Below, piece by piece: positions 7,438-57,249 of a DNA stretch of 64,000 nt. The position numbers were made by a program, and so were the translations under genes. The stretch is from the NCBI GenBank assembly GCA_024679065.1, contig JAGIQG010000011.1, positions 48,298,001 through 48,362,000 on the forward strand, given 5' to 3'. Under the pieces are notes generated by a model. The model was given only the letters and a program-made list of their open reading frames with translations, did no database searches and had not been told where the DNA came from. Source of the stretch: Sphyrna mokarran. Lineage: Eukaryota. Position 1 is the stretch's first letter. The number at the start of each line of letters is the position of its first letter.

Positions 7438-9133
7438 CGATCTGATCAGGGATACGCAGCATGGCTTCGTCAAGGGGAAGTCTTGTCTTACGAATCTAGT
7501 GGAATTTTTTGAAGAAGTGACAAAAACAGTTGATGAAGGACAGGCTGTTGATGTCGTCTACATGGATTTCAGTAAGGCGTTTGACAAGGTTCCTCATGGT
7601 AGGCTGATAGAGAAGGTGAAGGCGCATGGGATACAGGGTCTGGTATGTAGATGGGTCGAGAACTGGCTCGGGAGGAGGAGACAGAGGGTAGTAGTGGAAG
7701 GCTCTTTTTCCGGCTGGAAGCCTGTCACTAGTGGAGTGCCACAAGGCTCAGTACTAGGTCCTCTTCTATTTGTGGTCTACATAAACGACTTGGAAGTTGG
7801 GGTAGGTGGGGAGATCAGCAAATTTGCTGATGACACCAAGATGCTTGGATTGGCGGGTACAGAAGAGCAGTGTCAGGCAATACAACAGGACATAGACAGG
7901 TTGGTAGACTGGGCAGATAGATGGCAAATGGAATTTAATCCGGATAAATGCGAGGTGATGCATTTTGGCCGAAAAAATGTAGAAGAGAGTTATAGGATAA
8001 AAGGTAAAACTATACGGAGCATAGAGACGCAGAGAGACTTGGGGGTGCAGGTTCACAAGTCTCTGAAGGTGTCCTCACAGGTGGAGAAGGTGATAAAGAA
8101 GGCGTATAGTATGTTAGCTTTCATAGAAAAGGGTATAGAATACAAGAGTAGGAGTTTGATGTTGCAGTTGGATACAACTTTGGTTAGGCCTCACTTGGAA
8201 TACTGCGCCCAGTTCTGGTCTCCGTACTATCGGAAGGATGTGGAGTCCTTGGAGAGAGTGCAGAGGAGGTTTACCAGGATGCTGCCTGGTATGGAAGGAC
8301 TGTCCTATGAGGAACGATTAGATAGACTGGGGTTGTTTTCCCTTGAAAGACGTCGGCTTAGAGGGGATCTCATAGGGGTGTATAAGATTATAAGGGGTAT
8401 AGATAGAGTAAATGGAGGTAAACTTTTTCCACCTTTAGAAATGGATAGGACGAGGGGTCATGGCCATAGGGTTAGGGGGGCTATGTATAGGACGAATATT
8501 AGAGGGCAGTTTTTCACACAAAGGGTAGTGGGGGTGTGGAATGCACTGCCGAGTAAGGTGGTGGGAGCAGGCACGCTGGGGCTGTTTAAGGGTCTCTTGG
8601 ACAGCCACATGAACGGTATGCAGATAGAGGGATATATTAGGACTGTTTAACTACAGCTTTTTTTCCACAGGTAATTCGGTCCATACTTGACCAACATTGA
8701 GCATGCATTCGGCAGGTGGTGCGGGTACAGCTCTTGGATGTTGATTCATGGGTTGCCTGGTACCTCATGTCGTAAATGAGTGCTTTATGTGGACCATCTG
8801 AAGGGCACCATGACAGCTCAAAGACTATCGATGTGGCTGTGCAGACACTTGGAATTGGGCCGGTGTCTGCGGGAGTTTGCGCGTTCTCCCCGTGGTTGCG
8901 TGGGTTTTCTCCGGGCACTCCGGTTTCCTCCCACAACCCAAAAATTCGCTCTTAGGCTGATTGGGAAACAAATTGTCCCTATGGTGAAAATTTTCCATAT
9001 TAGGAATAATATATATATTATTTATAGGAATATTAAAATAGGATAATGTATTTGCTACTATATAGTATGACGGCAGCGCGGGCTCGTTGGGCCGAAGGGC
9101 CTGTTTCCCGTGCTGTGTTGCTTAAAAAAAAAA
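7438..9133 (+). mobile_element. Young 5'-truncated CR1 LINE: uninterrupted RT/C-terminal ORF2 (to 8650) plus long composite 3' UTR
   Basis: QHGF..GKSCLTNL, DFSKAFDKVPH, SGVPQGSVLGP, KFADDTK, LVRPHLEYC; no stops; CR1 tail ggccgaagggcctgtttc..tgctgtg and A-run. Confidence 0.96.
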
Positions 9134-9284
9134 TAGTCAGGCTGCTTATCAGAAGTTGTCAAACTGGTGAATTTTGCTTAGCTCAAATCAAAGAACAGTA
9201 GACATCATTGAGGATTAATTGTCAATAATTATTCAATTCCTTTATTAGGTGCTAGCCAATCTTACCTGCATTACATAATATAAA

Positions 9285-9336
9285 CAACATCGAAGGCCGA
9301 AGGGCCTGTTCTGCGCTGTAATGTTCTATGTTCTAA
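9285..9336 (+). mobile_element. CR1 3'-tail fragment
   Basis: caacatcgaaggccgaagggcctgttctg..tgttctatgttcta, nearly identical to 22654-22704. Confidence 0.85.
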
Positions 9337-17623: not shown

Positions 17624-17990
17624 ATAGAATCATAGAATCCCTGCAGTGCAGAAAACAGCCATTTGAACCATTGAGTCTGCATTAACTCTCAGAAAGAGCA
17701 TCCTTCCCAGGCTCTCCCTCCCTCCCTCCACTCTATTCCCATAACCCTGTACATTTACCATGCTAATCAACCTGACCTACATATCTTTGGACACTTAGGG
17801 GCAATTTAGCTTTGCTAATCCACCTATGCTGCACAACTTTGGACTGTGGGAGGAAACTGGATCACCAGGAGGAGACCATATAAATATAAGGAGAATATGA
17901 AAACTGAACATGTAGTTAACCAAGGCCAGAATTGAACCCAGGTTCCTGGTGTTGTGAGACAGCACTGCTAATCACTGTGCCACCATACCA
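17624..17990 (-). mobile_element. HE1-like V-SINE (tRNA head, V domain, CR1 tail)
   Basis: Reverse strand reads tggcacagtgattagcagtgctgtctcaca..gggttcaattc (A/B boxes), ..tttcctcccacagtccaaag.., tail gggattctatgattcta. Confidence 0.88.
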
Positions 17991-17994
17991 TCCA

Positions 17995-18950
17995 AGATTG
18001 ATGGACAATCTTCTTGAAGCATAATAAATCCACAACTGCCAATGTTGTGGCTGCATCCAGTAAACATTCTCTCAGTTATCAGATCATCAAACAGAAAATT
18101 GTTATGTTCAGATTGAAAATCTGACCAGTTTGTTGAGAGAATTCTATCTCTCCAATGTAACAACAACTTATCCTTCTCCTCCTCAAGCACCCCTTTGTTT
18201 TGAGAATACCTGGCTTCCAAACTGTTTTGATGGGTTCTGAGATGGCTAAAATGGTCATCTGTAACATGCAGACCCTGCCACATGCAAAGTAGGTAGTGCT
18301 TGACAAGATGAGTACATGAGCTGTTTTGAGGTTGTGTGCTCTCTCCAATGCCTTGAATTTGTCTTTGCATGTTCCCAATGAAGTTTCTTAATGTGTTCAG
18401 TGCCTTTCTGAATGAGCCTTCTCAATTTTGCTTGGTATCAAGCCAGGATCTTCTATAAATTGGTGAGGCTATATGATTTCTTTAGGGATACTTTGTGAAT
18501 ATCCCTAAAGCATTTCTACTGGCCTCTTAGGAGTCTTCAATAGCAAATGAGTTCCAAGTACAGCAGTTGCTTTGGGGTCTGGTGTCAGGCTTAGGAGTGA
18601 CATGTCCTGTCCTGTCGAGCTGGTTTTGTGTGATTAACACCTCAATGATTGGTATGTGATCTGAGGAGAGAACGTTATTGTTGTTGGTCTGTCATTCTTG
18701 CCATCGGATTTGGAGCATTTTGTAAAGCTACCATTGATAGTACTTCTCCAGTGTTTTGAGGTGGCTGCTTTATGGTTTTCAAGCCTTAGAAACATACAGG
18801 AACATTGTGATCACTGCCACCTAATAACCCTTAACCTCAGTCTCAGGTTCGAGAACTTGTTTTTCAAATCCTCTTTGTCAAGAAGGCTCTTGTGCAGTCA
18901 GCTCCCATCCACTGCTCTTTACCCCCTCTCAATCCTCACTTCTGTTGATT
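17995..18950 (-). mobile_element. Decayed RTE-like LINE 3' fragment
   Basis: Broken C-terminal ORF-like segments with many stops. Confidence 0.45.
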
Positions 18951-19652: not shown

Positions 19653-20915
19653 GCTTATATAGTGTTTTTATTTAATTAAACATCCCAAGGTGCCCTTTAG
19701 AAGTGTATAAAACAAAGTAAGATACCTGGACACAAAAGGAGAAATCAGGCCAGATGACCAAAAGCATGGTCAAAGAGATACATTTTAAGGAGTGTATCTT
19801 AAGGAAGAGAAGAGGTAGAGAGACGTAGAGCTATCAGAAAAGTATTTTAGAATCTGGATCCTAAGTAACTGAAGGCATGGCCCTCTTTGGTGGAATAATT
19901 AAAATTGGAGATGCAGAAGAAATCAGAATTAGATGAGCATAGATATTTCAAGAGCCTCACTCTGGCATGATTGTCTTTGCCACATTTATTGCAGAGAAAT
20001 ATAGCGGGGTGAGAAGATTCACAATTTGCTGGCCTCTGTTTTTCTGGGCCTTCTTCTCAGTCAGCTGAGCTTTTCATTTCTTCTCCTTCAAATACACTTC
20101 CAGTCAGCCTCCAGAGTTCACAGCTAGCAGCAACAGTCTCCCAGTTGTCTATGTTAGTATCTGCCATTTTCATAGTTTCCTTCTCTTGGAGGTCCTAAGA
20201 GGGACCAGTTGCCAATTTACCCTACAGACGCTGCAGGTGATAATGCTATATTGGCAGAATGTGTCAAGCAAGGGAAACTGGTGCTTATATAGTGTTTTTA
20301 TTTAATTAAACATCCCAAGGTGCCCTTTAGAAGTATATAAAAGAAAGTAAGATATCTAGATGCAAAAGGAGAAATCAGGTCAGATGACCAAAAGCATGGT
20401 CGAAGAGATAGATTTTAAGGAGTGTATCTTAAGGAAGAGAAGAGGCAGAGAGATATAGAGCTATCAGAAAAGTATTTCAGAATTTGGATCCTAAGCAACT
20501 GAAGGCATGGCCACCTTTGGTGGAATAATTAAAATTAGAGATGCAGAAGAGATCAAAATTAGAGGAGCATAAATATTTCAAGAGCCTCACTCTGGCATAA
20601 TTGTCTTTGCCACATTTATTGCAGAGAAATATAGTGGGGTGAGAAGATTCACAATTTGCTGGCCTCTGTTTCCTGGATCTTCTTCTCAGTCAACTAAGCT
20701 TTTCATTTCTTCACCTTCAAATACTCTTCCAGTCAGCCTCCAGAGTTCACAGCCAGCAGCAACTGTCTCCCAGTTGTCTGTGTTAATATCCTCCATTTTC
20801 ATAGTTTCCTTCTCTTGGAGGTCCCGGGAAGGACCAGCTGCCACTTTACCCTGCAGACGCTGCAGATGATAATGCCGTACTAGCAGAATGTGTCAAGCAA
20901 GGGAAACTAGTGCTT
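19653..20915 (+). repeat. Tandem duplication, 630 bp unit x2 (about 90% identical by eye)
   Basis: gcttatatagtgttttta at 19653 and 20283; both units end tgtcaagcaagggaaact.gtgctt. Confidence 0.95.
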
Positions 20916-21560
20916 CTGCAGTATTTACACAAACGCTTCTGCTGGAAAGAGGAAGAAAAGTCCCAGAATATGCATGATGCAAAAATTGAGACCCTACACA
21001 AGAAGAAGGATAGCAATTGCAGCTATTACTGAGGCATCTCACTATTGAGCAACATGGGAAAACTTTTGCCAGTGTTGCCCTTCTTTCACTTCAGAATCAA
21101 GCCAAATGCAAGTATCCCGAATCCCAGTGTGGTTTCAGAACTGGAAGGTCTACAATTGAAATGACCTCAGTCTAGCAGCTGCATGTGAAATGCAATTTTC
21201 TCCTATATATTATCTATACATTACCACTATGCATGCTCTTCATCAATGTTGTTAAGCCTTTCAATCATGTGAGCAGAGCTAATCTATTCAAGCTGCTGGA
21301 AAAAACTGACCGCCTATCAAAGCTGTTTAATATGAGTTTCTCTTTCCATAATAACATAATGGATATAAATCTACAGTGGGGTCAAACCACAGTACCATAA
21401 TCTTTGGGATAGTCTTCTCTTTGTTGCCATCATATGTCTTCCAATAATCTACAGAGTGTGTCCACTTACATACAAAAATTGACAGAAAGCTGTACTACCT
21501 TGCACACTGATGATCCAAGACAAATATATGGCAAGTTCTCATCAGAAAATTGCTCACAAT
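20916..21560 (+). mobile_element. Decayed RTE-like RT fragment
   Basis: Y*GISLLS, YPESQCGFRTGRSTIEM, LCMLFINVVKPFNHVSR resemble RTE RT domains. Confidence 0.65.
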
Positions 21561-21752: not shown

Positions 21753-22704
21753 ACTGTTTGTAATTTTTATAAATGATCTGGATGAGGGTATTGAGGGATG
21801 GATCAGTAAATTTGCAGATGATACTAAAGTTGGTGGTGTGGTAGATAGTGAAGAGGGGTGTTTTAGTTTACAGAGTGACTTGGACAAGTTGCAGAGCTGG
21901 GCCGAGAGGTGGCAAATGGAGTTTAATGTGGAAAAGTGTGAGGTAATGCACTTTGGCAGGAACAATAAATGTGTAGAGTATAGGGCTAATGGTAGGGCTC
22001 TTAATAGTGTTGAGGAACAGAAGGATCTTGGTGTATGTGTCAATAGATCCCTGAAAGTAGGCAGTCAAGTGGATAAAGTTGTTAAGAAGGCATATGGAGT
22101 CTTAGCTTTTATTGGTAGGGGATTGAATTTAGGAGCCGCAGCATCATGTTGCAACTGTACAAAACTCTAGTGCGGCCGCACTTGGAGTATTGTGTGCAGT
22201 TCTGGTCGCCACATTATAAGAAAGATGTGGAGGCATTGGAGAGGGTACAGAGGAGGTTTACTAGGATGTTGCCTGGTATGGAGGGCAGGTCCTATGAAGA
22301 GAGGTTGAAGGATTTGAGGTTGTTTTCGTTAGAAAGGAGGCGGCTAAGAGGGGATCTTATTGAAGCATATAAGATGATTAGAGGTTTAGATAGGGTGGAC
22401 AGTGATAGCCTTTTTCCTAGGATGGAGAAAGCTAGCACGAGGGGACACAGCTTTAAATTAAGGGGTATGAGTTATAGGACGGATATCAGAGGTAGGTTCT
22501 TTACTCAAAGAGTGATTAGGGAGTGGAATGCCCTGCCTGCAGCTGTTGTAGATGCGCCAAGTTTGGTGGCGTTTAAGAGGTTAGTGGATAAGTATATGGA
22601 TGAGAAGGGAATGGTTTAGTTAGGAGGGGCATTGCTTTTTATTTTGGTCGGCACAACATCGAAGGCCGAAGGGCCTGTTCTGTGCTGTATTGTTCTATGT
22701 TCTA
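21753..22704 (+). mobile_element. 5'-truncated CR1 LINE with short 3' UTR, one frameshift near 22120
   Basis: FINDLD..SKFADDTK..LVRPHLEYCVQFWSP; (TGTTCTA)n tail. Confidence 0.95.
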
Positions 22705-23446
22705 CTTAATTGGAGGAGATTTCTGTTCTCCAAATACTGAATGTTAGAAAGGCTCATACCTTAGCAATACTGTAGGAGCTGAGTAAGGTGGTGGTGAATT
22801 AGAGTTGGAAATTGTCAATGCACATGTGAAAACTAACACTGTAGCTGGAATCTTATTGTGTTTCACACCAGCAGGATTTTCCCATCCAGCTGCAGTGAAT
22901 GGAGATTTGGCTGGCTGCCAAATTCTCTGGCCTCGCTGCAGCGTGAATGTGGTGTGAACATAAGTAAGATCGCATCTTGTATCTTTAAGTGATGTCAATT
23001 TCAGTGGCTGAATATATAATTACTGCAGTATTCAAGGATGATAAGTTATCAGGGCTATTTTGTTTTTATTTTATGCTTTTATTATCCCTGGCATAGGAGT
23101 TGAACCTCACAAACACACACATGTTTCATGTGCACACACATATATGGTAAAGGGGGAGGGTTAGAAAAAATGGAATTTTTACAAGTATGGATAAAAACAG
23201 AAATGAATTTTAGTCCATATGATTTCTAGAGTCCAGAAAATCAAAGTCCAGATGGTGTTTCTTCTGTGGCAGAGTTTTGTCTAGATGAGTTGCTGGTTGG
23301 AGATAGCAGCTCAAAAATCCTTGCAACAAATGACAATGCAGCATGACGGGATCTCTGTGCTTCAACTGCTTGGCAGGTATTAAACAGAGGCTTTTGGAAT
23401 CAAGTAGACTTCAGGAAGTTGAGACATGATGACATATGAACAAGCA

Positions 23447-23557
23447 GACAAGGGAAGAATGTGCAGACTTCACATAGACAGTGATCCAAGCTGGCAATTG
23501 AACCTGGGTCCCTAGTGCTGTGAGGCAGCAATGCTAACCATAGTGCCACCACGCCAT
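23447..23557 (-). mobile_element. HE1-like SINE 5' part
   Basis: tRNA-derived head plus start of V domain on the minus strand. Confidence 0.8.
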
Positions 23558-24501
23558 CCACTATGAAGTCATTAATTAATCCTATCTCATTGCACAATAC
23601 CAGGTCTAATATAGCCAGCTCTCTGGTTGATGTTAGATTGTGCTGTTCTAAAATTATCCTGAAAACATTCCATAGATTCTTTATCTGGGTTCCCTTTTCC
23701 CATCCAATTTTTCCACTCTATGTTGATTCAAATCCCTCGTGATTATCATTGTACCTTTCTGACAAGCTCCCATTATTTCTTCCTTTATAGCCTGTGTGGT
23801 TACTGTTAAGAGGCCTAAACATCAGTCCATCAAGTGACTTCTTGCCTTTATCATTTATCTTCTCTACACAAACTGCTTCTAGATATTGATTTCCAGAGAT
23901 TATTACTTTTGAAATTCTACTTTATAATTTGATGCCCCTTATACTCTCTATGCAGACTTTCTTTCCTAGCCTTACCTGTTGTTATCATTACTTGAACAAT
24001 AACCACTGGATTCTCCCTTTCCAAATACATGTTCCTCTGCGACCCGTAGCAAATATTCTGAACTCTGATATTGGGAGCACGGAAAATACAAGAAATTTTC
24101 CTCCCTTTTTTCCTCCTTCTGATTGAGGAATTGGCCCTGTTTCTTTGTAATTGTGCTCTTAACTTGCTATTTCAATGTATAAATACATATTTTAAAAAAT
24201 ATTTCCATCCTGAGCTTGTTGAGGCCAGGTCAAGGATATTCAGGTGTTATCTCACATGATTTGTGTCAATTAAAAGCTAAAGTTGGACTTCAAAATTATC
24301 TCTGGCAAAATGTTAATGACATATTTTGAACATGAAGTTTGGGATAAGATTTATTTTACAGTGTAATATTTCCATCAGAGGCAACTGTGCCTGTAAGTAC
24401 AGCACTGATCTTACAGTTTGTAAGATCTTACTTTAATTGTTTGACATATTTTATTCATATGGCTAATTTTTAATTCAACATTTCCCATAGGAGTGGCAAG
24501 G

Positions 24502-24614: not shown

Positions 24615-25046
24615 GTAGGTTACATTTGTAAGCTAAGTTTTTTAGAATGTATTTTTTACCTTAATCTCTTCCTCATGTATCCCCTAGAGGCTCTGGCCTT
24701 CATACAACCTTCCTATGTGATAAATGTGGTTGAAAAGCATAGTCTTTGCCATGATTTTGGACATGATTTTCACTCTACCAATTTAAAAGAAGCAGCAAGA
24801 ATAATCAGATGTACAAGTGCATTGTACAGAAAATATAAGAAGACATGATTTCTATTATCTAGTCTTCAGCTGATATATAATCAAATAAGGTATTGCTTGC
24901 AGGTCAACCATTGGTGCCAGCAAACATGCTGCAACCACTGGAATTGCACTTTATAGGAGAAACACTCAAACTTCCATGCAAAGGCATTTGTAAGATAGGG
25001 ACTAAGGGAGTGCACAAGGGTGATTAGTTGAACAGTATATGGTATG

Positions 25047-26930
25047 GTTAGCTATTCTCCAGTCCTCTGAGACCTCACCTGTGTCCAAAGAAGAGACAAA
25101 GATTTGCGTCAGAGGCCCAGCAATTTCACCTCGCGTCTCCCTAAGCAGTCTGGGATAAATGCCATCAGGCCCAGGAGATTTATCAGTTTTAATGCTAACT
25201 AGAAGCTCTAACACTTCCTCCCTCAGTACGGATATTTCCCTCAACTGGCCTACAGCTCCCTCAGAGACAGGACCAGTCAACAAGCCCCTCTCCTTCATGA
25301 ATGCCGACGCAAAGTATTCATTCAGGACCTCCCCCATTCCCTTGGGCTGTAAGCACAGTTCCTCTCCTCTGTCCCTAAGACGTCCAATTTTTCCTCTAAC
25401 CATCCTTTTATTCCTAACATAGGAGTAAAAAGCCTTTAGATTTTCCTTAATCCTATCCGCCAAAACCATTTCATACCCCCTTTTTGCCCTTCTAACTCCC
25501 CATGTGAGCTCCCTCCTACTCTCTCTATATTCCTCCAACGCTCTCTCCATTCCCAGCTGCTTTGACCTAACATACGAGTCTCTTTTCTTCCTAACCAAGT
25601 CCTCAATATCCCTAGTAATCCATGGCTCTCTAATCCTACCTTTCCTATCTTTCCTCTTAGCCGGCACATGTCTATCTTGTAACATTTTCAGTATTCCCTT
25701 GAAAGAATCCCACGTGCCTACTGTGGACATACCCTCGAACAACCGTTCCCAATCAGTTTCCATAAGTTCCTGCCTAATCCGACTGTAGTTAGCCTTCCCC
25801 CAATTCAGCACCCTCCCCGTAGGGCAACAAGCATCCTTTTCCATCTGTATCCTAAAATAGACAGAATTGTGGTGACTGTTAGCCACATGTTCCCCTACTA
25901 CAACATCAACCACCTGCCCTGGCTCATTACTCAGAACTAAATCCAATATAGCCCCCTCTCTAGTCGGAGTAGCCACATACTGCTCCAACGATCCTTCCAG
26001 TACACATTTTACAAATTCCTCCCCGTCCGAGCTCCCAGCTCTAGGTACCTTCCAATCCACCCCAGGAAGATTAAAATCTTTCTGCACCTATCCAAAATGT
26101 CTTTACGTATGCCTTCTTCAACTACCTGCGGGCTGTTGGGTGGCCTATAATACACCCCTAGCATAGTAATTGCCCCCTTCCTATTCCTCGACTCCACTCC
26201 TAACTCCTCTGTATTGTCCTCCCTCTGCACTGCTGTGATGCTCTCCCTAACTAACAACGCCACTCCCCCACCTCTTCTGGACCCACCTCTGTCATGCCTG
26301 AAACACTTTTACCCAGGAATATTCAGCTACCACTGCTCCCCTTCCTTTAACTATGTCTCCGTCACTGCAACCACATCCAAGTCCCTTGCAAACATTAAGG
26401 TCCTAAGTTCATCCGTTTTTCTTGTTATGATCCTCTCATTGAAACAGACACACCCCAGACCTCCAAGATCACTTGGAACCTCCTTCTCCCTGGTGTATTT
26501 CCTCTCATTCAAGCTTACTCTATCTTCCATCTCACTCCCTACCCAGCTATCGGTCTCATCCCTTCCTCCCCTCCATATTAGTTTAAACCCTGCCGAAACA
26601 CTCCAGCTAACCTCCCAGCTAAGATATTCACGCCTTTTCCATTTAAGTGTTCCCCGTCCCTTCTATACAGGTGCCCTTCTTTCACAAATACTTTCCAGTT
26701 ATTCACAAATACTTTCCAGTTATCCACAAATATAACACCCTCTGCCCTACACCAATCCTTCAGCCACGCATTCAGCTGTAGGATCTCATTTCTCCTGGCC
26801 CTGCTGTTACCCGGCCCAGGTAGCAGCCCTGAGATCGCCACCCTGGAGGCCCTACTCTTCAGTCTACCCCCCAACTCCCTGAACTGCCTTCATATATCCT
26901 CCCTGCTCTTCCTTCCTACATCCTTCTCTC
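25047..26930 (-). mobile_element. Internal CR1 fragment: ORF1 SGNH-esterase end, APE endonuclease and linker; frameshifted
   Basis: LNAWLKDWC..LYRRDG.HLN (ORF1); GVYYRPPN, DFNLP, PTREGAILDLVL, KSPGPDGIYPRLL, DWRIAN. Confidence 0.92.
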
Positions 26931-28735
26931 TTATGTGAATAATCACATCCGCCTGGGTCCCCTCACCCTTCAAAATGCCCAATCTGATGTCAACCCTCTC
27001 CACCATATCTACCAGACAATTACTTCACAATGTCATCTTTATGTCCCTATAGGCGAAGATCACCCATTGCAAGAGAGAGTGGCAGAAAACAAGCGGGGTG
27101 GGGGGGTACCCAAGATTAGAATGCTTACCCACTTTAACAAGAGGACAGTGCACTTCATGAGGGAATCCCATAACTAAGCCTTGGCAGACAGTGAGATTGG
27201 CATGCGCCAAAGAAGTGAAAGTCCACTGCTCCTTTAATGTTAGATATTTTAGTAGTTGCATGATTATGTTAAGAGGTCACATGTCTTGATCATGAGATTA
27301 TTAGGTATTGTTATTTTGAATTTACATGTGCAAACCATATATTTTCTTTTTATTTAAAATCAACAACCACTAACAAAATTAGGATATTACAAAAACAAAA
27401 TTGGCAATGAGTCTGGATTTTGTTTGATGAACACATGGATTAAAAATCCTAAGCAGAAAAAAAAATTATGGCCCTTGAACTTCGAATACTACAAGGCTAG
27501 GGAAAATCAACAACAGAATTAAAGATTGAAGGGCCAGTGAAGACTCAAGTGAAGAAAGAAAAGGCGGAAAATATTTGCATTTATTACTGGGGAAAAAATA
27601 TAGGGCAGACTTGTCTCAGCTGCACATTGCAATACATAGCTGCAGGGTGAGAGACTCACAGTGCACTTGAATAAAGGTGGATGCTCTCTGTGTAGTTTTA
27701 AAAGAGAGAATTTTTCTGGTCAGAGAAAGATGAGATTCCAGGCAATATCTGGCATATTTAAAAAGAAGTGATGCTTTGCTGTACAGCTGGATCACTTGGA
27801 AAAAAAGTCAAGTCAATGATCTTCAGAGTAACAAGGGAGTACTGGCAAGACGCTAAAAACATATATACTGAGCAGTTCAAGCCATTAGTGCCTGCAGAAG
27901 AAATGGTGGATCAATTAGGATCAGTGGGCCTTTCCAATTAAGAAAATGAATCATGGAGTTCCTATATGGAGCAGTTTCAATACTTTGTACTTGCAAATAA
28001 ATTTGAAAACAAGTTGCTTTTACCAACTTTTCTCAGTACAATTGGAAGTAAAATCTTCAATTTGCTCAGCAGCTTGGTTCACCCAACAAAGCCAAGGACC
28101 AAAACTTAACAAAGATCTTTGCAAAGCCACTGATCACTGTCGAACTGTTCAAGTTTCACTGAAGGAATAAAGTAGAAGGTGAAGGCATTGCCCACTTGGT
28201 GGCACCTTTAAAAAGACTAGCACAACATGATGAGTTAATGATTCATTAGAAAATACTCCTTGAGATTGTCTGTGCTTTTCGAAATAAAGCTATCCAAAGA
28301 AGATTCCTTCCTGAAAATGCTTTGATTTTAAAAATAGCAATCACAATATCAATGCAATTGGCTATGAATGAGGTTTCATAATTTGATGCAGCAGTGAAAA
28401 TCCACAAGCTGGGAACTGCCAGTAAGAAGTCAAAACAGCACCAAGCATATCACAGATATGTGAAAATGGGCCATTCAGTGAATGAATGTCAGGGTAAGGA
28501 TAGTCAATGCAAGAATTGTGGCAAAATGAGTCACATTACAAAAGAATGTTGGGCTAGACCAACTTTTCCTGAGAACAATATTCAGAAGAAGTATCTCTGT
28601 AACTTAAAAAACAAGTTGAATTCTACAAAAATAACTTGCAATATGGTTGAAAAGAATTACCAACAGTGAACAATAGGATATGCAGAAATATGATGAAGAG
28701 CTCCAATTGAACATCATATCTGTACACAGTGAATC

Positions 28736-29530
28736 AAAGAACAAAGAACAATACAGTGCAGGAAACAGGCCCTTCAGCTCTCCAAGCCTGTGCCGCTCAT
28801 TGGTCCAAGTAGACCATTCATTTGATTCCCTCTGTTCCCAGTCTGCTCATGTGACAATCCAGGTAAGTCTTAAACAATGCCAGCTGTCTGCGTCCACCAC
28901 CCTACTTAGCAATGTATTCCGGGCCCCCACCATCCTTTGTGTAAAAAATGTCCCTCTGATATCTGAGTTGTACCTCGCCTTTCTCACCTTGAGCCCATGA
29001 TCCCTTGTGATCATCACTTCTGACCAGGGAAAAAGTTTCCCATTGCTCACCTTATCTATACCCTTCATAATTTTGTACACCTCTATTAGGTCTTCCCTCA
29101 TTCTTCATCTTTCCAGGGAGAACAATCCCAGTTTACCCAATCTCTCCTCATAGCTAAGACTCTCCAGACCAGGCAACATTCTAGCAAACCTCCTCTGCAC
29201 CCTCTCTAAAGCCTACACGTCCTTCTGGTAATGCGGCAACCAGAATTAGACGCAGTTCTCCAAATGTGGCCTAATGTTCTACGCAGCTACAACATCAGAC
29301 TCCAGCTTTTACACTCTATACCCCATCCTATAAAGGCAAGCATATCATATGCTTTCTTCACCATCTTCTCTGCCTGCGCTACCACCTTCAAGGATTTGTG
29401 GACTTGCACACCCAGGTCCCTCTGTGTTTCTATACTCTTGATGATTCTGCTATTTATTACAGAACTCCCCCCTACATTAGTTCTTCCAAAATGCATCACT
29501 TTGCATTTATCTGGATTAAATTCCATCTGT
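28736..29530 (-). mobile_element. CR1 3' fragment nested in the Gypsy between gag and protease; short 3' UTR
   Basis: MEFNPDKCKVMHFG..RDLGVQVHKSLKV; (TGTTCTT) tail at 28736. Confidence 0.92.
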
Positions 29531-32589: not shown

Positions 32590-35520
32590 CAAATGCTGAC
32601 ACCCCCCCCTCCATGTCCTTTGTCTTTCAGGATCTCTAACTCATCTGGGGTCACTATCCCTCCCACAAACCCCTTAGAGGACTCCACAGCACAACTCTGA
32701 GGAGGACACCGAGCTCTCACCACTGCTTTCACCAACACCATCAAACTGCACAGAGACACTTACCTCAGTGGGACGTGTTAGTGAACAGGCTTCTGGGTCA
32801 TTTTCTGGAGTGCACCACATGGCTGCTGAAGCACATCAAGTGGAGGCAAAAACATTCAAAGAAGTGGGCAGTCGGAGGACCCAGGATCCCAGCAAACAGC
32901 TGTTTCAAAGCCAGATATCGGACCTATGGAAAAGGTCTTCCTATCACTGATAGAGATGCAAATATGGAGCAAATCTTTGGAGGGGGTATCAGCGACTTTC
33001 CAGCAAATGCAACACCAATTGAAGTAATCTGGAAGCCTGCTTTTGCAGAAGATGGCAAAACACGGCAAGGGTGGCATCCGCAGTGGAAAGCCTCAGACAA
33101 GATGTCTGAGCCATGTCTAATGATGTCCAAAGCTTGGCTCATTTTATGATATCCATGGCTGAGGCGCAAGACTGCAGGGCCCAGTCACATCATGACTTCA
33201 GTACTGGTCAACATTGCTGAGGCACTCCACAGTTTGACTCACTCACACAGGATTATGGCTGAGAGCAATGAGTGCATTTCCCAGTGGCAGAGGGCCATGC
33301 TAAGGGTTCTGCCACTATGGTTAAGGCATTGGTGGGTCTCCAGGGCTGGCAGTATTAGGTAACTCAGAGCCTTCTGGAGCTCACTCCAGCTGCGCCTTCA
33401 TCCCATGGAATAGTGGGAAGAGCGAATCCCGGGGCCTTGCACCAAGGCACTCTCCAGACCTTCTGTGTTCCCCTTTCCTGACACTCTCTCATGTCCTGGG
33501 CAACAGGCAGACCACGGTGACTTGTGACCTGTGATACCTGAAAGGTCACTAATGCCCTTCAGGTCTAGGCACTCCAGATGATGCCAGCCAAGGGCAGCAC
33601 AGGCCAGAAGATGCGGAATGCAGGAGGCTACCTCTACCTCTGATGTGCTTTCTGGGAACACACCTAAAAGAAGTGAGAAGTCAGGAAAGTTAAGAAGGTA
33701 GAGGACCACTGAGTTGGCACAGGTGAAGACACAGAAATATAGTTAAGGAAAAAAGGTACTGATTGTAAAAAACAACAATTAACATGTTTGCATTTTGAAA
33801 CTAACATCCCTGTCACTGTTAATGTTTCCCTTGAGGGTAGGAAAGGGCTGATCTCCTCCTCTAACCTTTGAAATTCCCACATGCCTCCAGCTTCACCAAC
33901 TTGACAGCCCATGAGACCAATCCCAGTCATCCTCGTATGGCAACCTTACCAGTTCATTAGCCCAGACTTAGTGGCATTTCTCCTTCCCCTTTCCTCACCA
34001 TGGCCCAGAAGAAAATGCTTCCATCTCACACAGGCATGAGGTGGGAGGTGGGAGGTCAGTTGAGCTAACATGGGAGGTCATAAGATTCTGGGGAGCACTA
34101 CAGTTTCCCTCACAGTGAGTCATCATTACCCTCTTTTTGACACTATTATCTTAGAACCATCACCCTAGTGTTATGTCAAATACACACTTGGAGGTGGAGA
34201 GGGGGAGTACTGCTAATGGGAAGGAGGAAGTGAAGCTGTAGCAATGTTCAGAGGTTGGGTTTATAATAGGTCTCTGACAAGTGCAAAAGGGGTTGGGGAG
34301 GAGGGTTCTGCAATGGTGGAGGGGGAAGAAGGGATTGGGCAAGGCAGGATTTAAGGATTACAGGGATGGGGTAGTTTAAGCTGCCTGACAAAGAGCCTCC
34401 TAGGTGAGTAATCTGGAGGCTTTGAGGGCCTGCCTGCTTCTATCCTCCATCTTCTGGAATGTTATTAGGTTGTCCTCAATCCCATCCTGGTCCTCCTTCT
34501 CCCCCGACAAATTCATATGTTCCTTAGCCTCCTCCTCCATCATGTCATTCTGCTGCTGTGTCAGGTTGTGCAGGACACAGCATGCGACCACTATTCGCAA
34601 CTCCCTCTGGGGGCTGTATTGGAATGCCCAACAGAGTATAGACTGTAGGCCCGTACACTGCTCAGTGACATACCTGGTAGCAGAAACAGTCAGCCTACCG
34701 TCTTTGGACCCTCAAGTCTATCTAACTCCCATCATCATCTTGCATCTGAAAATTGACCATTCCTGCTTCCCAGCACAGCTTTGAAGAGCTGCTGCCCAAA
34801 ACAGGTAGCTTACACAGTCATGGTCTCTGCTCCTTGGTACCTCAGTGTCACTTATGGTTTCATCATCTGGGGGTGATTCCTATCATTAGTGCTATTGCAA
34901 ATTATTTTCCACTGAAAGTGGAAGGCCCTGTTTGCCCCCAAACCTCTTCGATCCATCAGTGCATTCATGTGAGCAATGATGCAAGAGCATCAGGTGAGCC
35001 CTCATAATGCCTGAACTGCGAGCCTCCAGCCTTGCCTATGACTGTCTCTTCTCCTAAGCCTTCCTTGCAATATTGAGGATGAATTATCAATGATGACAGA
35101 CAGGTGATAAGAGGTTTAAGGCTAGCAGGAATATAAGAGGATGGAAAACTGGTGCATGATCTGAATTGAATATCATGAACATCATGCCACCTTATTCCTG
35201 GCATTTTGCCACTCTCACAGGACAGCCACTGTGAGACTTCTCACTTCAATGATGAACCACTGTGTTCCCTCTCCACAACCACAACCACTCTCGCCCAGCC
35301 CCCTACCTGGACTACCGATACTGACTCATTTACAGGGCCCTTGCTGGAAAAGGTTTCAATCCTCACAATCCTTTCTGCCAAAATCAGGAGCATTATCCCA
35401 CAGAGAGGGCTCTGTGGTCCTCATGCTGCGTTTCCTAGGGAGTCAAAAGCGGGTGGGGTGGGGGAGCTGATAGAAAGACCAGTGTGCCTTTTTGTGTGAG
35501 CTATGGTCGATGCTTGTGTA
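32590..35520. mobile_element. Decayed PIF/Harbinger element (transposase on - strand, probable accessory gene on + strand)
   Basis: 34400-34620 minus reads RIVVACCVLHNL plus an acidic stretch, typical of the Harbinger transposase C-terminus. Confidence 0.65.
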
Positions 35521-36020
35521 GTGGAGATGCTAATATTGTGCTCTGCTGCCAGATGCTAAAGTTAAACCACAGCCTAAAGATGAATTAAAGATGTGAGAAG
35601 AGTTGTCACTGGTTTAAAGACAAGTAGGATTACAAAGTTGTGATGCTTTCTAGAAAGGATCATTAATATTGTGCCCAAACAATGAGGCGGGACTGACCAG
35701 CTGCATTGGTGAGAGACAGAGCATCTCAAGCTTGATGGAACATGAACTGAGTGTTTCAGTAGGAGATGTTTATTCTGACCTGCCTATGACTATTATGACA
35801 GTCATAGGCAAGGCTGGAGGCTCGCAGTTCAGGCATTGTGAGGGCTCACCTGATGCTCTTGTATCATTGCTCACATGAATGCACTGATGGACCGAAGAGG
35901 TTTGGGGGCAAACAGGGCCTTCCACTTTCAGTGGAAAATAATTTGCAATAGCACTAATGATAGGAATCACCCCCAGATGATGAAACCATAAGTGACACTG
36001 AGGTACCAAGGAGCAGAGAC
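34823..36020. repeat. Inverted repeat, 224 bp arms (34823-35046 / 35797-36020)
   Basis: Arms are reverse complements with about 3 mismatches. Confidence 0.95.
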
Positions 36021-42837: not shown

Positions 42838-43878
42838 ATGAAAACACAACATGGTGGCAGCAGTGAGATCAATTGATAGGTTTGCATTCTCCTGCTAGTG
42901 TAATGTTGCAGTGCCTTGAAACTATTAATTTTGTCGAAATATTCTGAATGTTTCAATATTAGTTTATGAACTGAGGTGATTGGATTAGTTTCTAAGCTTG
43001 ATCTACCATACAGTTTCTAAGTAATCTCATGAATTATGACTAGTGCATGCTGGTATAACAACCATTATTAAACCTTTAGTCTCCACAATATAGAACATCT
43101 CTGACATTTGGGAGGATTGATTGTACTTGTGCTCCAGAACTATGAAACCAGTACATGGAATGAATGGACCATCATATAATGAAATTTTCACAGTAATAGG
43201 TTTTGTCATGGCCTTTGTATCTATGGACACATGTCTTTCAGAATCCTCATGATATGTTTTGCACTTGGTCGTATCAAACTTCGCTTTTTAATGCTACATG
43301 TTTTGGGCTTGTCTAGCAGATTCTTCTATAATGCTTCCATGGGAATGGATATAATCACCAACTCAAAAATTCTGTTTCTAGTGCAATTTGTTCTTTTTTG
43401 AGTAAGGAGGCTAAAATTGTACACAAAACTCCAGATGTTTGATACGACCAAGTGCAAAACATATCATGAGGATTCTGAAAAACATGTGTCCATAGATACA
43501 AAGGCCATGACAAAACCTATTACTGTGAAAATTTCATTATATGATGGTCCATTCATTCCATGTACTGGTTTCATAGTTCTGGAGCACAAGTATAATCAAT
43601 CCTCCCAAATGTCAGAGATGTTCTATATTGTGGAGACTAAAGGATTAATAATGGTTGTTATACCAGCATGCACTAGTCATAATTCATGAGATTACTTAGA
43701 AACTGTATGGTAGATCAAGCTTAGAAACTAATCCAATCACCTCAGTTCATAAACTAATATTGAAACATTCAGAATATTTCGACAAAATTAATAGTTTCAA
43801 GGCACTGCAACATTACACTAGCAGGAGAATGCAAACCTATCAATTGATCTCACTGCTGCCACCATGTTGTGTTTTCAT
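42838..43878. repeat. Near-perfect inverted repeat, 442 bp arms (42838-43279 / 43437-43878), 157 bp spacer; arms are decayed Gypsy protease-RT linker
   Basis: About 3 mismatches; identical ORFs on both strands; SLYDG.FIPCTG..FYIVETKG..PAC and KHSEYFDKINSFKG resemble Gypsy pol. Confidence 0.96.
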
Positions 43879-46533: not shown

Positions 46534-49500
46534 TGTTTATTCTGGGATTAGTTTTATGGTCCTATATTGTTAGGAGAGAATGTGTTTTTGGACATTTTGT
46601 TTTCAAAAAGCTTTAATGTTTTAGTTTTGAGGTTGCAGTTTAGTTTTAGCAGGAGCATCAAGCAAGAAAGAAGCTAAAGTCACTCTCTCTCTCTGTCTCC
46701 CTGTTCTATTTTGAAATTTTGCTGGTTATCGCAGGCAATGTTTGCCTTCTGGAAAGAAAGTGCAAGTTTTAAAAAGACTCAATTTCAGTCAAGTGAGATT
46801 TTAGTCAATGCTGTGTTAAGCCTGTGAAAATGGTTTTGTTTATGAAAGATTTTGGTTTTTTGGAACAGCTTTAATATTCAATTAAAGGTTAATAAATTAT
46901 AGAGGTTGTTTTCTTTTTTTGTAATTGATATAAGGTATTGCTATTTTTCTTTCTGTACATGTTAACTATATTCTCAAATAAACTTTGTTTGATAAAAGCT
47001 CTGTAAAGGGTTGTTGAATCATACTTGAAGTGAAACATATTATGCTTATCCTAGCCAAATTCAAGATGCAAAACCTATGGTTTGGATGGTTTCCATAAAG
47101 AACTTTGAAATTTCTAGCCTGAGCCATAACAGTTAGGGGCTTTAGCAAGATTAAAATCTATATTTCTTGCTTGATTTGGGTTATTGAACTCAAAGAGTGT
47201 GTGGTGAGCATATTGGTGTTTTCTTTTCAGGTATTTGTATTCAAGTTTAAATAGGCATTCCCTATTGTGCCTAGTGTAATAATAATTGCTCTTTTAGGAA
47301 TGAAGAAGTTCTTCAGGTAAGGGAAGGCATGCAAGAAACCTTACAAAAGATGACTAAAACAAAGCTTTTGGAATTGACAAAAACATTGCAATTGACATTG
47401 CCTGACAGGGTAAGAAAAAGTGAAATAATTGTGCCAATAGCACAGCATTAGAAATTGCCAGAAGCATAATCAGAATCCTTGGAAATGGCTAGAAGTAAAT
47501 TACGAAAGAAACAGCTTGAACATGAAAAAGAATTAAAGAAGCTTAATTTGAAATGAAGGAAAGAGAGAGGGGGTAGCAAAAGACGATAGCCCTATCAGAA
47601 CAAAGGGTCAAAGAAAGGAATGCAATTGTAGCAGAAAAAGTAAAGGAGGGGAAGACCAATATAGCAAGAAAACCAAAGAAAGGGAGGAACAAAAAAAAGA
47701 CAGCCTGAATTGCAAGCAAGGGAAAGAGAGAGAGAGGGAATTAGAATTTCAGACATGGAAAAGAAAAACTGAACTTGAAATGCTCGAAATGCAAATACAT
47801 AAAATGCAAGGTCAGCAGCAGACATGTTAGGTGATTATGAATTAGTTCCTAAAACAAAGTTTGGTTTCTGACATCAGTTTTAGCCTTTGAAGGATAGAAA
47901 CTGGGGAACAGAAATACTCAGGTGGTGAAAGTAACGGAGATCTTGTAGGAGATAATAAAGATAATGTACCTCAGTTTGAAAAGGAAATACAGGAAAGTGG
48001 AAGAGAAATGAAAAACCTCAGAACTTTTCATTGTAATAAATTAGGCCATGTAAAGTCACAGTGTTCTTGATTTAAGAAAAGGACTGGAATGACTGAAGTG
48101 GTAAAACAGGATAAGCCAGTGGGGACTGTTAAAGTGGTAAAGGAAAGCCCAGCTTGGCCAGGAGTTGATTGACAAAAAAGTGTCAGCTCTCTGGCACTTG
48201 TGTGGATAAAATTTACTCATGAAGTTAAAATTTTAAGAGATAGAGGAGCAAGTCAATCTTTGATGGTAAGCGGTGAGGAATTATGTAGATTGGGAGGAGT
48301 ATTATCAAAAAAGGTGATAATGTGTGGAATTCAGGGAAAGAAGAGTAGTATTCCATTGAGTCCACTGAAGAATGGTGAAGTGGTAGTAGGAGTAACAGAG
48401 AAATTATCATGTGCAAAAATACAGTTTATCTTAGGTAATGATATAGCTGGATCATGTTGAAGGACACATATCCTGGGATTTTTCCTGATTGTGTAGTAAC
48501 AACATCGCAACATCATAGGTTAAAACAAGAGTGAAAATGAGAAAGTTGAAGTTCAATTATCAGAAATGATTTTTGATCAGATGGTTGGGAAAGAACAAGA
48601 ACAGGTGGAGAATGAGGTAATTACTTTAGTTCAGAAAGTTGACAGGGTTATAACAGAAAGATATGGAAATAAAACAGTTGTATCAGGAAGCATACATGGA
48701 AGAAGAACCTGAATGTATACCAGAATGTTATTATCTTAAAAGTGAGTCTTAGTGAGGAAATGGAGACCTTTACTTATTCAGGTGGATGAAAAGTGGGCAG
48801 AAGATCATCAAGTGATATTGCCAATAGGATATAGAAAGGAGATGTTGTGAGCAGCATGAGGTGTACCAATAGGTGGTCATTTGGGAGTAAGGAAAACTCA
48901 AGCTAAAATACAAAAACATTTTTATTGGTCTGGACTGCATAAAAATGTAGTTAAATTTTAGTTAAATTCCCTGTATGTATGTAGGGAAACATACATGTTT
49001 CCCTATGACTTGACATGTGTGAGACTTGACTCTCACACATGTCAAGTCATAGGGAAACGTCAAATAGTGATAGAAACAATAACCTTAATACCCATTCCAG
49101 CATTTGAGAAACATTTTACAAGGGTCTTAATTGATTGCGTAGGACTTCTCCCTGAGACAAAAAGGGGGCATCAATATCTTTTGACTATAATGAATGTGCC
49201 TTATTATGTTTCGAGAGGTCGTTCCATTATTAATATTACAGCTAAAGGAATTGTAGAAGAGTTACTTCAATTTTTTTACTAGATATGGATTATCCACAGA
49301 AATACAATCAGATCAAGAGTCAAATTTTATCTTAAAGTTGTTTACAGAGGTTAAGGATACTTCTAGGAATAAAACAAAGTAAATCAACTGCATACCATCC
49401 AGAATCACAGAAAGCGTTAGAACGGTGGCATCAAACCTTACAAACAATGTTGAGGGCTTATTGTTAAGATTATCCAGAGGATTGGTATAAGGGAATTCCA

Positions 49501-51871
49501 CGTGTACTGTTTGCCATTAGGGATGCACTTAATAGTAAACTAAATTCAGTCCATCTGAATTGATTTTTGATCATGAGATAAGAGGACCACTGAAATTGAT
49601 TAAGGACTTCGGCCCACCTTGTTATCCAACAAGGGGCATACAAGCAATGGGTCGTGAGAAGGTTGCTCTTAGATTTTTTGAGAGTAGCCTATTGCTTCAC
49701 GTCGTCAGTGTACGCTTGAACTAGACCAGTTGATGGGCAACACGACAGCTCAGTGACTGTTGCTGTGCAGATACATGAATTTGGGCCGATATCTGTGGGA
49801 GTTTGCGCATTCTCCCCATGCTTGCTGGGTTTTCTCCAGGTGCTCCGGTTTCCTCCCACACCCCAAAAATTTGCTCTTAGGCTGATTAGCAAAACAAATT
49901 CTCCCTAAATTGTCTCGTTAATTTTGTTCCAATGCAGGTTTCTATAATAGACAGGGGTCATGGGTGGAAGTGGGAATGTTGAGGTGGCGGCGTGGGCTCA
50001 TTGGACTGAAGAGCCTGTTTCCTGTGCTGTGTTGTTCTTTGAGAAATTGGTGAGTGAGTGTTCTGAAACAACATTATTAGATTACATGTCAAATTTTAGG
50101 GAAAAATTAAATAGAGCAGGTAAATTGGCTAGACAACATTTAAAAGTAGCACAGCCAGTGATGGAACAGCAAGCAAACAAGGAATCAAAAATTCATAGTT
50201 TTGCTAGTGGGGACAAAGTCTTAGTACTGTCGCCAGTGGTAAGTTAACCTTTGAAAGCAAATTTTAGTGGGCCTTATCAAATCAAAAGGAAATTAAGTGA
50301 GGTAAATTATTTGGTAAGAATGCCAGATATAAGGAAAACTTAGTGTGCCATGTGAATATGCTTAAAAGGTATTTTGACAGGGAAGTAGAACAAAAAAATG
50401 ATGTGTTAATAGTTATAACTCAGAATGAAGAACTGAATCCAGATGACTCTGAATTTGACATTTCTCAAGTTAAATTAGATAATAAATACATTATTAAAAA
50501 TTGGGAAATATTACTGAGTTAACTTCCAGATGAAAAACAAATTCACCTAAGAGTTATTAAAATCACATGAATAAGTATATGGAAGTAAACTGGGATGTAC
50601 TAGAATGGTTATTCATGATGTAGATGTGGGAAATGCTGTTCCAATTAAATAACATCCTTATAGACTTAACTTTGTAAAATTGGCACAAATTCAAAAGGAA
50701 ATTGGAAGTATCCTTAATAACATAATTTAAGTGAGTTGCAGTGAGTGGTGCTCATTCATAATAATAGTACCAAAATCAGATGGTACCTAACGATTGTGTG
50801 TGGACTATAGGAAAGTTAATGCAGTTACAAAATCAGACTCTTATCCTATTCTATGGCTGGAGACTTGCATTGAGACGGTGGGTCAATCAACTTTTATTTC
50901 CAAACTGGATTTACTCAAAGGTTACTGGCAAGTATCTTTATCTGAAAGGGTGTAGGAGACTTTTAACTTCCATGGCACCAAATGGTTTATACCAATTCAA
51001 AGTTATGCCATTTGGCATGCCAAACACCTCAGCCACATTTCAACGGTTAACTAAGAAAGTCATTTCAGGACTACCTAATTATGGTGTACATAGACGATCT
51101 GGTGATTTTTAATCAGACATGGAAAGAACAATTGAAGCATTTGGCAGAATAATTCAATCAACTTCAGGAGGCAGGCTTGATGGTAAACCTAGCTATGAGT
51201 GAGTTTGGGAAAGTTGAAGTTACATTCCTTGGCCATACAATTGGACATGGACAGGTGGCCCTGTGGGATGTGAAAACAAAAGTTATTGGGAGGTTCCCAA
51301 TACTACTGACAAGGGAAATAATGAGATTTCTGGGCCTGAGTGGTTTTCACAGTAAATTTGTACAGTTTAGTTTTCAGTTTTTGCAGGCACCTCAAGCAAG
51401 AAAGGAGCTGCAGTAGACTCTCTCTCTCTGTCTCCCTGTTCTATTTGGAGATTCTGCTGGTTATCTCAAGGCAATATTTTGCCTTCTGGAAGGAAAGTGC
51501 TGGCTTTGAAAAGACTCAATAGCAGTCAACTGAGATTTTAATCTATGCTGTGTTAAGCCTGTGAAAAGGGTTTTGTTTGAGAGGTTTTGGTTTATTGGAA
51601 CAGCTTTAATATTCAATTAAAGGTTAATACATTATTGAGGTTGTTTCCATTCTTTTTTGCTTATAATTGGTACAAGGTATTGTTAATTTTCTTTCTATAT
51701 GTGTTAACTATATCCTTAAATAAAATTTTTTTGATAAAAACTCTCTAGAGAGTTGTTGAATTATACCTGAAATAAAACACATCATGTTCATCCTGGCCAA
51801 ATTCAAGATGCAAAACTTATGGTTTGGGCGGTCTCCATTAAGTACATTGGAGTTTTAACTGAACCATAATA
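46534..51871 (+). mobile_element. Decayed Gmr1-like Gypsy LTR element (PR-IN-RT order), internally deleted at the 3' end
   Basis: LTR copies ~46630-47130 and ~51361-51871; ILRDRGASQSL (PR); GGHLGVRKT..HFYW..CQV, IDCVG, TAYHPES (IN, 48850-49600); YRKVNAVT, KLDLLKGYWQV, FKVMPFGM, YIDDL (RT, 50780-51350). Confidence 0.9.
49607..50040 (+). mobile_element. Stand-alone copy of the long CR1 3' UTR module (V-domain plus CR1 tail) inserted in Gmr1 pol
   Basis: Colinear with 54228-54673; removing it restores ttaagga|gaaattgg (LIKEKL). Confidence 0.9.
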
Positions 51872-52338
51872 CTCAGGACATCCCAAAGCACTTTATATCT
51901 AATTAAGTACTTTAAGTGTAGCCGCTGTTGTAATGTAGGGAGTGCAATTTGGACACAATAAGGTACTACAAAAACAGCATTGTGATAATCTATTTCATTA
52001 ATATTAATTAGCCTCTCACATCTGCTTTCAGGAAAGATCCCACAATTCAATTACCTTTCAAGGCAAGTGTAATACTATCCTTTAAATAAGGATATCATGG
52101 GTAATTTTATGAGTTGACATTATTGATGCAGAACTTCTTATGCCAGAAGAATATATTGGGCAGGCAAACCTTCACTCTAATTTTCTGTCTGTTCAAATAA
52201 TTCATAGTTATTCCTTAGCTTATTCCTAAAACAGGAAGACCTAAAGGAAGAATTTTAAAGTTACAACATTAGAATAGATTTATATTAGAATGCAAACTAC
52301 TTGCAAGTGAAAAACAAGACTTTGTTTTTTATTCACAG

Positions 52339-56935: not shown

Positions 56936-57249
56936 CATAGAATAGAATCCTACTGAGCAGAAGGAGGCATTTGACCCAATAAATCTAGACTCTCAGACCT
57001 AGCATTCTAGCCAGGCCATATTTCCATAATCCTGCACATTTATCCCACCAATGCCCCTAAAAGACAATGTAGCGTAGCCAATCAACCTAACCTGCACCTC
57101 TTTGCAGTATGGGAGGGAACTGAAGCACTGAGGAAACCTACCCAGACACAGAGAACGTGCAAACTCCATACAGACAATCACCCAAGGCTGGAATCAAACC
57201 CAGGCCCTGAGGCTGTGAGGCAGCAGTGCCAACCACTGTGCCACTATGC
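56936..57249 (-). mobile_element. HE1-like V-SINE
   Basis: tRNA head, V domain and CR1-derived tail on the minus strand. Confidence 0.85.

Follow-up and report, generated by a model that had tools for sequence, protein, structure and literature searches.

HE1 is a V-SINE of sharks and rays, and a table in PMC3747384 gives the CR1-type LINE HER1 as its partner. The MITE MER6/MER6A is described in PMC6887750 as carrying an Ac1-like V-SINE. Among LINEs, Ingi-3_AC is presented in PMC5786205 with a Ceph/RTE-like segment in its 5' UTR, possibly obtained through SINE recombination, and RTE-1_DAn as a LINE with tRNA-like sequence. In the Repbase comparison of LINEs and SINEs in that paper, SINE bodies receive contributions only from RTE and Vingi elements, and LINEs are stated to have yielded no sequence resembling the conserved SINE bodies. 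Three models for the conservation of SINE domains (interaction with LINEs, a recombination hotspot and host benefit) are set out in PMC5499810, where the choice between them is left undecided. Literature searches turned up no description of a CR1 whose 3' UTR contains a V-SINE; Repbase, Dfam and shark genomes lay outside this comparison, and an unremarked consensus may exist.

Here, we analysed a window of 64,000 nt of Sphyrna mokarran DNA (GCA_024679065.1, contig JAGIQG010000011.1, 48,298,001-48,362,000, forward strand), in which CR1 copies carry a long composite 3' UTR. The evidence base for the module in this UTR is three copies (A, B and C) in one window, of which B and C are a close pair (83% identity). 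The composite UTR is real and inherited, and judging from sequence comparison it would best be filed as a CR1 variant with a captured V-SINE, working like a SINE-tailed LINE. The overall account towards which we lean is that a V-SINE was captured in the CR1 3' UTR and that its V core acts in cis on the LINE RNA.

CR1 copies with long and short 3' UTRs

Copies A (7445-9133) and B (53164-54673), both on the forward strand, are diverged CR1s with a common composite 3' UTR of approximately 480-520 nt. Both are 5'-truncated, beginning at 7445 and 53164, and the window holds no full-length copy showing ORF1, the APE endonuclease or the 5' UTR. In A, ORF2 (7445-8650) covers the RT and the C-terminal part in 401 open codons and ends in a TAA stop at 8648-8650; the UTR runs up to ~9123 and is followed by poly-A up to 9133. 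In B, the decayed ORF2 (53164-54153) contains stops and frameshifts and ends at a stop at 54151-54153, and the composite UTR occupies 54154-54673. In the window self-BLAST, A and B align with 75% identity over 1377 nt from ORF2 into the V region (7661-8981 versus 53164-54536), and their tails give a separate alignment.

Downstream of the stop codon of A, the module consists of a polypyrimidine tract with a CAG/G acceptor-like sequence motif (8657-8671; the slash marks the junction), a unique structured segment of 132 nt (8671-8802), a head-like segment of 61 nt (8803-8863), the V-domain core (8864-8935), a post-V segment homologous to HE1-like SINEs by sequence comparison (8936-8979), a fast-evolving AT-rich spacer (8980-9069), and the CR1 3' tail stem-loop with poly-A (9070-9133), all on the forward strand. 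The corresponding parts of B are a spacer (54154-54209), the acceptor-like motif (54210-54225), the structured part (54225-54357), the head remnant (54358-54417), the V core (54418-54489) and the tail (~54615-54673). Copy C (49606-50041, forward strand) is a module only, without ORF2, and shows 78% identity to A by self-BLAST; it was overlooked in the preliminary description. The module is fused to ORF2 in A and B and is free-standing in C, but C starts ~130 nt upstream of the head.

Two sibling copies have UTRs of only ~85 nt. Copy D (21754-22704, forward strand; stop 22617-22619, end 22704) belongs to a more distant lineage with another tail type, and copy E (28735-29529, minus strand; stop 28820-28818, end 28735) shares the clade and the tail type of A and B and lacks the module. 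The contrast between long composite UTRs in two copies and short sibling UTRs, on which the preliminary description was built, is genuine (~480-520 nt in A and B versus ~85 nt in D and E). The tail is a CR1 3' stem-loop with short tandem repeats at its end, as in D and E (consensus hairpin z=-2.1); the TTTCC type is found in A, B, C and E. A 52-nt stub of a D-type tail lies at 9284-9335, 150 nt 3' of copy A, and is 96% identical to 22653-22704 by self-BLAST. Copy D is 95% identical to a JGI protein (P0008).

The ORF2 of A encodes a reverse transcriptase (Pfam RVT_1, E 2.6e-25) that falls within the CR1 clade. Among the matches listed, its best elasmobranch-named matches show 56-64% identity, and turtle and bird CR1-type proteins ~50-54%. 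In a tree of 27 rows, A, B and E formed one clade (support 100/100) within the elasmobranch CR1s, nested in a 12-row clade of elasmobranch CR1-like proteins (100/99), and D was placed elsewhere. None of the 23 reference rows from databases falls in the A/B/E clade, the best identity being 68% among the matches listed. Monophyly of A and B was neither supported nor rejected (support 59/33, AU p=0.43), and DNA quartets over 681 columns were distributed as AB 21, BE 27 and AE 15, so that branching among these sequences cannot separate a gain of the module in A and B from a loss in E. The module is dispensable, because E, a CR1 of the same clade with a short UTR, lacks it.

Two reverse transcriptases at NCBI labelled Klebsiella pneumoniae and Proteus mirabilis (P0004 and P0017) group with the elasmobranch CR1s at 66-68% identity to A and probably represent host contamination of bacterial assemblies. 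In a GTDB scan, 39 CR1-like loci (L001-L039) were found, and the module or V was detected in 0 of the 39 (best E 0.31). Many of these loci lie on short contigs, and they are likely eukaryotic contamination. A search for the module in plasmids and phages gave no match. In addition, no conserved reading frame was found across the module, and a search with the antisense frame over the module of A among proteins of 57-182 aa found nothing.

Across the rest of the window, a scan for host genes in 27 stretches by Pfam (the ORF2 of A, a 68-aa flank of C and 25 of the 40 other ORFs of at least 105 aa) detected nothing besides retroelement domains and a match below the cut-off. An open frame of 361 codons on the minus strand (25002-26087; Exo_endo_phos_2, E 4e-4, below the cut-off) probably represents the 5' portion of a further LINE ORF2. 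Self-BLAST also revealed a tandem duplication of ~640 bp with 91% identity (19653-20926) and long inverted repeats at 34823-36020 (arms of 224 bp, 98.7%), 42838-43878 (445 bp, 99%) and 57504-58603 (295 bp, 93%), which may be MITE-like or palindromic elements.

The V-SINE in the UTR and its origin

Compared by eye with Pyad, the published consensus of a frog V-SINE, the V core of A (8864-8935) shows 7 differences and one gap over 72 positions. Three decayed HE1-like V-SINEs are present on the minus strand of the window, recognised by comparison at 17740-17995 (with a full tRNA head), 23440-23560 (head and V start) and 56960-57256. A profile of the three module copies recovered two of the three with E values of 4e-13 and 9e-11, and the third, truncated one at E 0.61. 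Both the comparison with Pyad and the module profile confirm the V-SINE central domain that had been proposed for this UTR.

The ~180 nt of unique sequence and the lack of a clear tRNA head in the same proposal need correction: only ~132 nt are unique, and 8803-8863 is a decayed head without a B box. In this degenerate head, which directly precedes the ~80-bp V domain, the 5' end and the A-box region are retained, and the B box has been lost through a deletion of 17-18 nt in A and B; the head of C is ~5 nt shorter still. V lies 78 nt from the head start in Pyad, compared with 60-61 nt in A and B. An anchored transition-aware alignment against the three HE1-like heads in the window gave shuffle p values of 0.0013, 0.0003 and 0.0003 (A, B and C) and p values of 0.010, 0.0013 and 0.006 against GC-matched window segments, with the head of A aligned over ~52 nt before a 17-nt gap at the B box. 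This scoring was chosen after plain scoring of the anchored test had proved marginal (shuffle p 0.16, 0.016 and 0.04; window-segment p 0.33, 0.06 and 0.15), and unanchored local alignment against the same three heads did not reach significance (lowest p of 9, 0.054). Additionally, positions 49735-49758 of C match the 5' end of Pyad by eye at 18 of 24 positions, all six differences being transitions (binomial chance 7e-5, with 190 positions allowed for). Neither ARAGORN nor Rfam detected a tRNA on the module heads, and likewise none was detected on the HE1-like copies of the window. The head remnant before the V core and the head-to-V spacing argue that a whole V-SINE, not a bare V body, sits in the UTR. 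No intact pol III promoter (A and B boxes) is present, and deletion of the B box should remove the internal promoter.

A profile of the antisense V translation of the module, run on a library of 1.84 billion proteins, matched 135 proteins. Among these, the V frame was of the usual KL[HY][TA] type in 67 and of the module type, KLPQT, in a single protein, P0121, which shares further module-type residues beside this motif. Moreover, its continuation, TLIQAGDPTWVP, is identical at 9 of 12 positions to the B-box-spanning translation of the HE1-like copy at 23.5k, suggesting the existence of a free SINE subfamily that combines a module-type V with a B box. Because a tRNA-head remnant precedes the V core and P0121 pairs a module-type V with a B-box-bearing head, the sequences support a direction of capture from SINE to LINE. 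The preliminary description had left open whether the LINE captured the SINE body or donated it; capture gains from these two observations, and donation loses. LINE origins of SINE bodies have been proposed (Kojima 2018, PMC5786205), and the LINE examined here does carry V, but a LINE 3' UTR as the source of the SINE V domain is hardly credible and already largely refuted: the head remnant lies before V, the related CR1s D and E are without V, and V-SINEs span cnidarians, bivalves and frogs according to PMC4824008, which makes them far older than a three-copy CR1 clade within the elasmobranch CR1s.

The short UTR of E aligns to 8775-8807 of A, with the E tail start (GCGGCAC) meeting the head start (p=0.005-0.008); for B (p=0.13) and C (p=0.29) the alignment did not reach significance. 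The last ~30 nt of the structured segment of A are the part that aligns with the short sibling UTR. Several published V-SINE 5' ends in the supplement of PMC6887750 read GGGCGGCACGG or GGGCAGCACGG, and the tail of B starts with GACGGCACG. Such a GCGGCAC-like microhomology would allow the module to be gained by template switching or lost in E by deletion. In the capture account that we prefer, an elasmobranch CR1 lineage would have exchanged its 3' end for an entire V-SINE having the same CR1 tail. The reverse transcriptase probably switched templates at the GCGGCAC-like sequence of the SINE 5' end and the CR1 tail start, where the common microhomology would yield a chimera with a valid tail. 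The B box, whose deletion is visible in the copies, would have been lost afterwards, presumably together with the internal pol III promoter.

Conservation and structure of the module

The ORF2 of A and B differs at 37 of 89 four-fold sites and at 92 of 652 first and second codon positions. Compared with the four-fold sites, far fewer differences were found in the V core (5/73; Fisher p=2e-7), and fewer in the head remnant (11/59; p=0.004) and the post-V segment (8/44; p=0.011), whereas the unique part diverged at the neutral rate (46/131; p=0.40). The spacer is saturated (44/80), and the tail differs at 9 of 51 positions. Positions at which A differs from both B and C make up 29% of the unique part, 13% of the head, 7% of V, 7% of post-V, 35% of the spacer and 6% of the tail. 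By these counts, the V core, the post-V segment and the hairpin derived from the head changed far less than neutral sites did. A recent transfer of the entire UTR is excluded, since the conserved segments lie between saturated and near-neutral ones. The same module order in two ORF2 lineages that are 42% apart at four-fold sites bears out the earlier view of an inherited architecture rather than a one-off event, as do the fast-evolving UTR parts, which diverged in step (35% and 55%).

The unique part of the UTR has its own structure. In A, a stem of GGTCCA (8678-8683) and TGGACC (8790-8795) encloses two hairpins, one small and the other long and irregular (~8700-8784). Folded as a consensus of the three copies, this part gave z=-5.5 on the sense strand, a value reached in 0 of 300 column shuffles, versus -1.8 on the antisense strand, and the fold of A and B alone gave z=-3.2, compared with -1.7 to +0.9 in 7 ORF2 windows. 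Single-sequence folds were unremarkable for A (z -1.25) and B (-1.28) and strong for C (-3.6). In the long helix, counted over helices 1-3 and 5 on the alignment from which the structure was derived, 92% of the cells of 32 pairs are paired, with 10 one-sided and 4 two-sided changes. The structured RNA of the preliminary description is thus supported by the consensus fold of three copies, in which the upstream UTR segment appears to keep its long hairpin as the sequence drifts. Searches of the whole window against Rfam found no family at the gathering score, snRNAs and miRNAs included; at E<=10, B and C had no match, and A had one chance-level match to mir-3569 (E 5.8). Likenesses of the unique part to an HDV-like ribozyme, an xrRNA, 5S RNA and an IRES, which had been drawn by eye, are unsupported.

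That V is retained for some function, as had been suggested earlier, finds support in this conservation, with repeated conversion from a free SINE as the alternative. In the preferred account, the three slowly changing parts (V core, post-V segment and head-derived hairpin) have been held constant since the capture, and the upstream hairpin appears to have been kept despite drift. The likeliest, though tentative, explanation has the V domain acting in cis on the RNA of the element as an aid to retrotransposition, through RNP assembly, stability or presentation of the tail to ORF2p. The module would then be an advantage for retrotransposition, not a requirement.

The conserved blocks (V, post-V and tail) are also those common to free SINEs, a free SINE with a module-type V appears to exist (P0121), a recombination hotspot model has been published (PMC5499810), and MER6 carries V as a passenger in the account of PMC6887750. 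All of this fits a captured SINE in which the V core travels as a neutral passenger, renewed by repeated template switching or gene conversion with a free donor SINE mobilised by the same ORF2p. However, the B-box-deleted head, which a free SINE could not supply, is also conserved (p=0.004), every conversion tract must be short given the saturated spacer between post-V and the tail, and the retained upstream hairpin is left unexplained. We regard this passenger role as unlikely, although it deserves serious weight. An action of the conserved part at the DNA level (as an enhancer or antisense promoter) or as a host miRNA target, instead of in RNP formation, is very unlikely. A role of V-SINEs in fish mRNAs as targets of miRNAs has been put forward (cited in PMC5499810 and PMC6887750), but the fold signal of the unique part is specific to the sense strand, and a host benefit would act on single insertions rather than on the master element.

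The acceptor-like motif and copy C

The polypyrimidine-CAG/G motif noted in the preliminary description at the start of the module is present in both A and B, and the UTR homology of the two copies restarts exactly at the polypyrimidine tract, past unalignable spacers of ~7 and ~56 nt. Between A and B, 5 of 16 positions of the motif differ (p=0.58 versus four-fold sites), so that its conservation is not above neutral, and sites as good as those of A and B occur in the window at 0.4 and 1.7 per kb, respectively. The junction of A reads CAG/GTAATT (8668-8676), which presumably resembles a splice donor as well as an acceptor, and that of B reads CAG/GTGCTT.

Copy C begins at +3/+4 after AG/G, with a duplication of at most 1-2 nt, in the integrase region of a decayed LTR retrotransposon. 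It is most simply taken as a 5'-truncated copy of the subfamily of B. Its start near AG/G may reflect an ordinary truncation or a real RNA 5' end; it is one coincidence, noticed post hoc. The integrase region (48800-50500), which has many stops and a Pfam Integrase_H2C2 match at 48860-48958 (E 5e-9), is split by copy C. A direct repeat of ~500 bp with 84% identity (46639-47137 and 51373-51877, by self-BLAST) flanks this region and could represent the two LTRs of the element holding copy C.

The 5' end of C, the resumption of A-B homology at the polypyrimidine tract and the start of the structure at the same boundary would all fit a module that extends from AG/G to the tail as a non-autonomous family of its own, or as a subgenomic RNA of the LINE produced by splicing or processing. 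In that case, C would count as full-length, and the lineages of A and B would either express the module or have acquired it behind their stop codons. Since the 5' end of C is a single event, C has neither an upstream exon nor a pol III promoter, and the acceptor-like motif is common and only neutrally conserved, this possibility is decidedly improbable. A combined scenario seems rather unlikely: the LINE would have domesticated the V of its parasite as a cis-acting RNA element maintained by purifying selection, and would in addition release the module as a short RNA from AG/G, a built-in SINE of which C would be a retroposed copy.

We also considered a likeness of the 5' arm of the module (ACAGG..TTCGGTCCA; 8670-8700 and 54222-54255) to the reverse complement of the CR1 tail. 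Its significance was weak (3 of 18 tests with p<0.05 in one set and 1 of 30 with p<0.01 in another), and the 17-nt duplex that arm and tail would form was absent from whole-module folds of A and B. An inverted CR1 tail as the fossil origin of the acceptor-like motif is a possible but weak alternative.

Meaning and comparison with described elements

The contrast in conservation, drawn from three copies in one window, bears on why V-type SINE central domains persist across animal phyla. A LINE with V beside its ORF2 supplies an internal neutral clock in its synonymous sites, and by this clock V evolved approximately six times more slowly, after the presumed loss of the pol III promoter. If this were true genome-wide, the function of V would be tied to the retrotransposing RNA and not to pol III transcription. 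The flow of the module from SINE to LINE would be the reverse of the usual direction, and the element would offer an autonomous protein-coding setting in which mutations of a conserved pan-metazoan SINE domain can be made in cis and their effect scored.

Compared with other elasmobranch CR1s (Stegostoma, Chiloscyllium, Hypanus and Pristis), the copies share the ORF2 RT and C-terminal region, the 3' stem-loop tail with short repeats and the 5' truncation, whereas the UTR of A and B is five to six times longer, and A, B and E form a clade of their own. Like Ingi-3_AC and RTE-1_DAn, this is a LINE with SINE-like sequence; as described in PMC5786205, however, these are single families with such sequence in the 5' UTR or at an unspecified place, without a V domain and without a conservation test. 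MER6 resembles the module in that a V domain captured from a SINE was spread by another element and lost its head, but it is a non-autonomous DNA element with an internal insert for which its authors found no selection (PMC6887750), whereas in the CR1 copies the SINE makes up the functional 3' end of the LINE RNA, with V conserved relative to a neutral clock inside the element. The closest likeness in layout is HE1, with which the module shares the order of tRNA head, V domain and CR1 tail, its V core being ~90% identical by eye to the published V-SINE consensus. Unlike HE1, the module serves as the 3' UTR of an element that codes for ORF2 and has its B box deleted, and its tail is of the TTTCC/(GTTCTTT)n type, unlike that of the HE1-like copy at 57k in the window.
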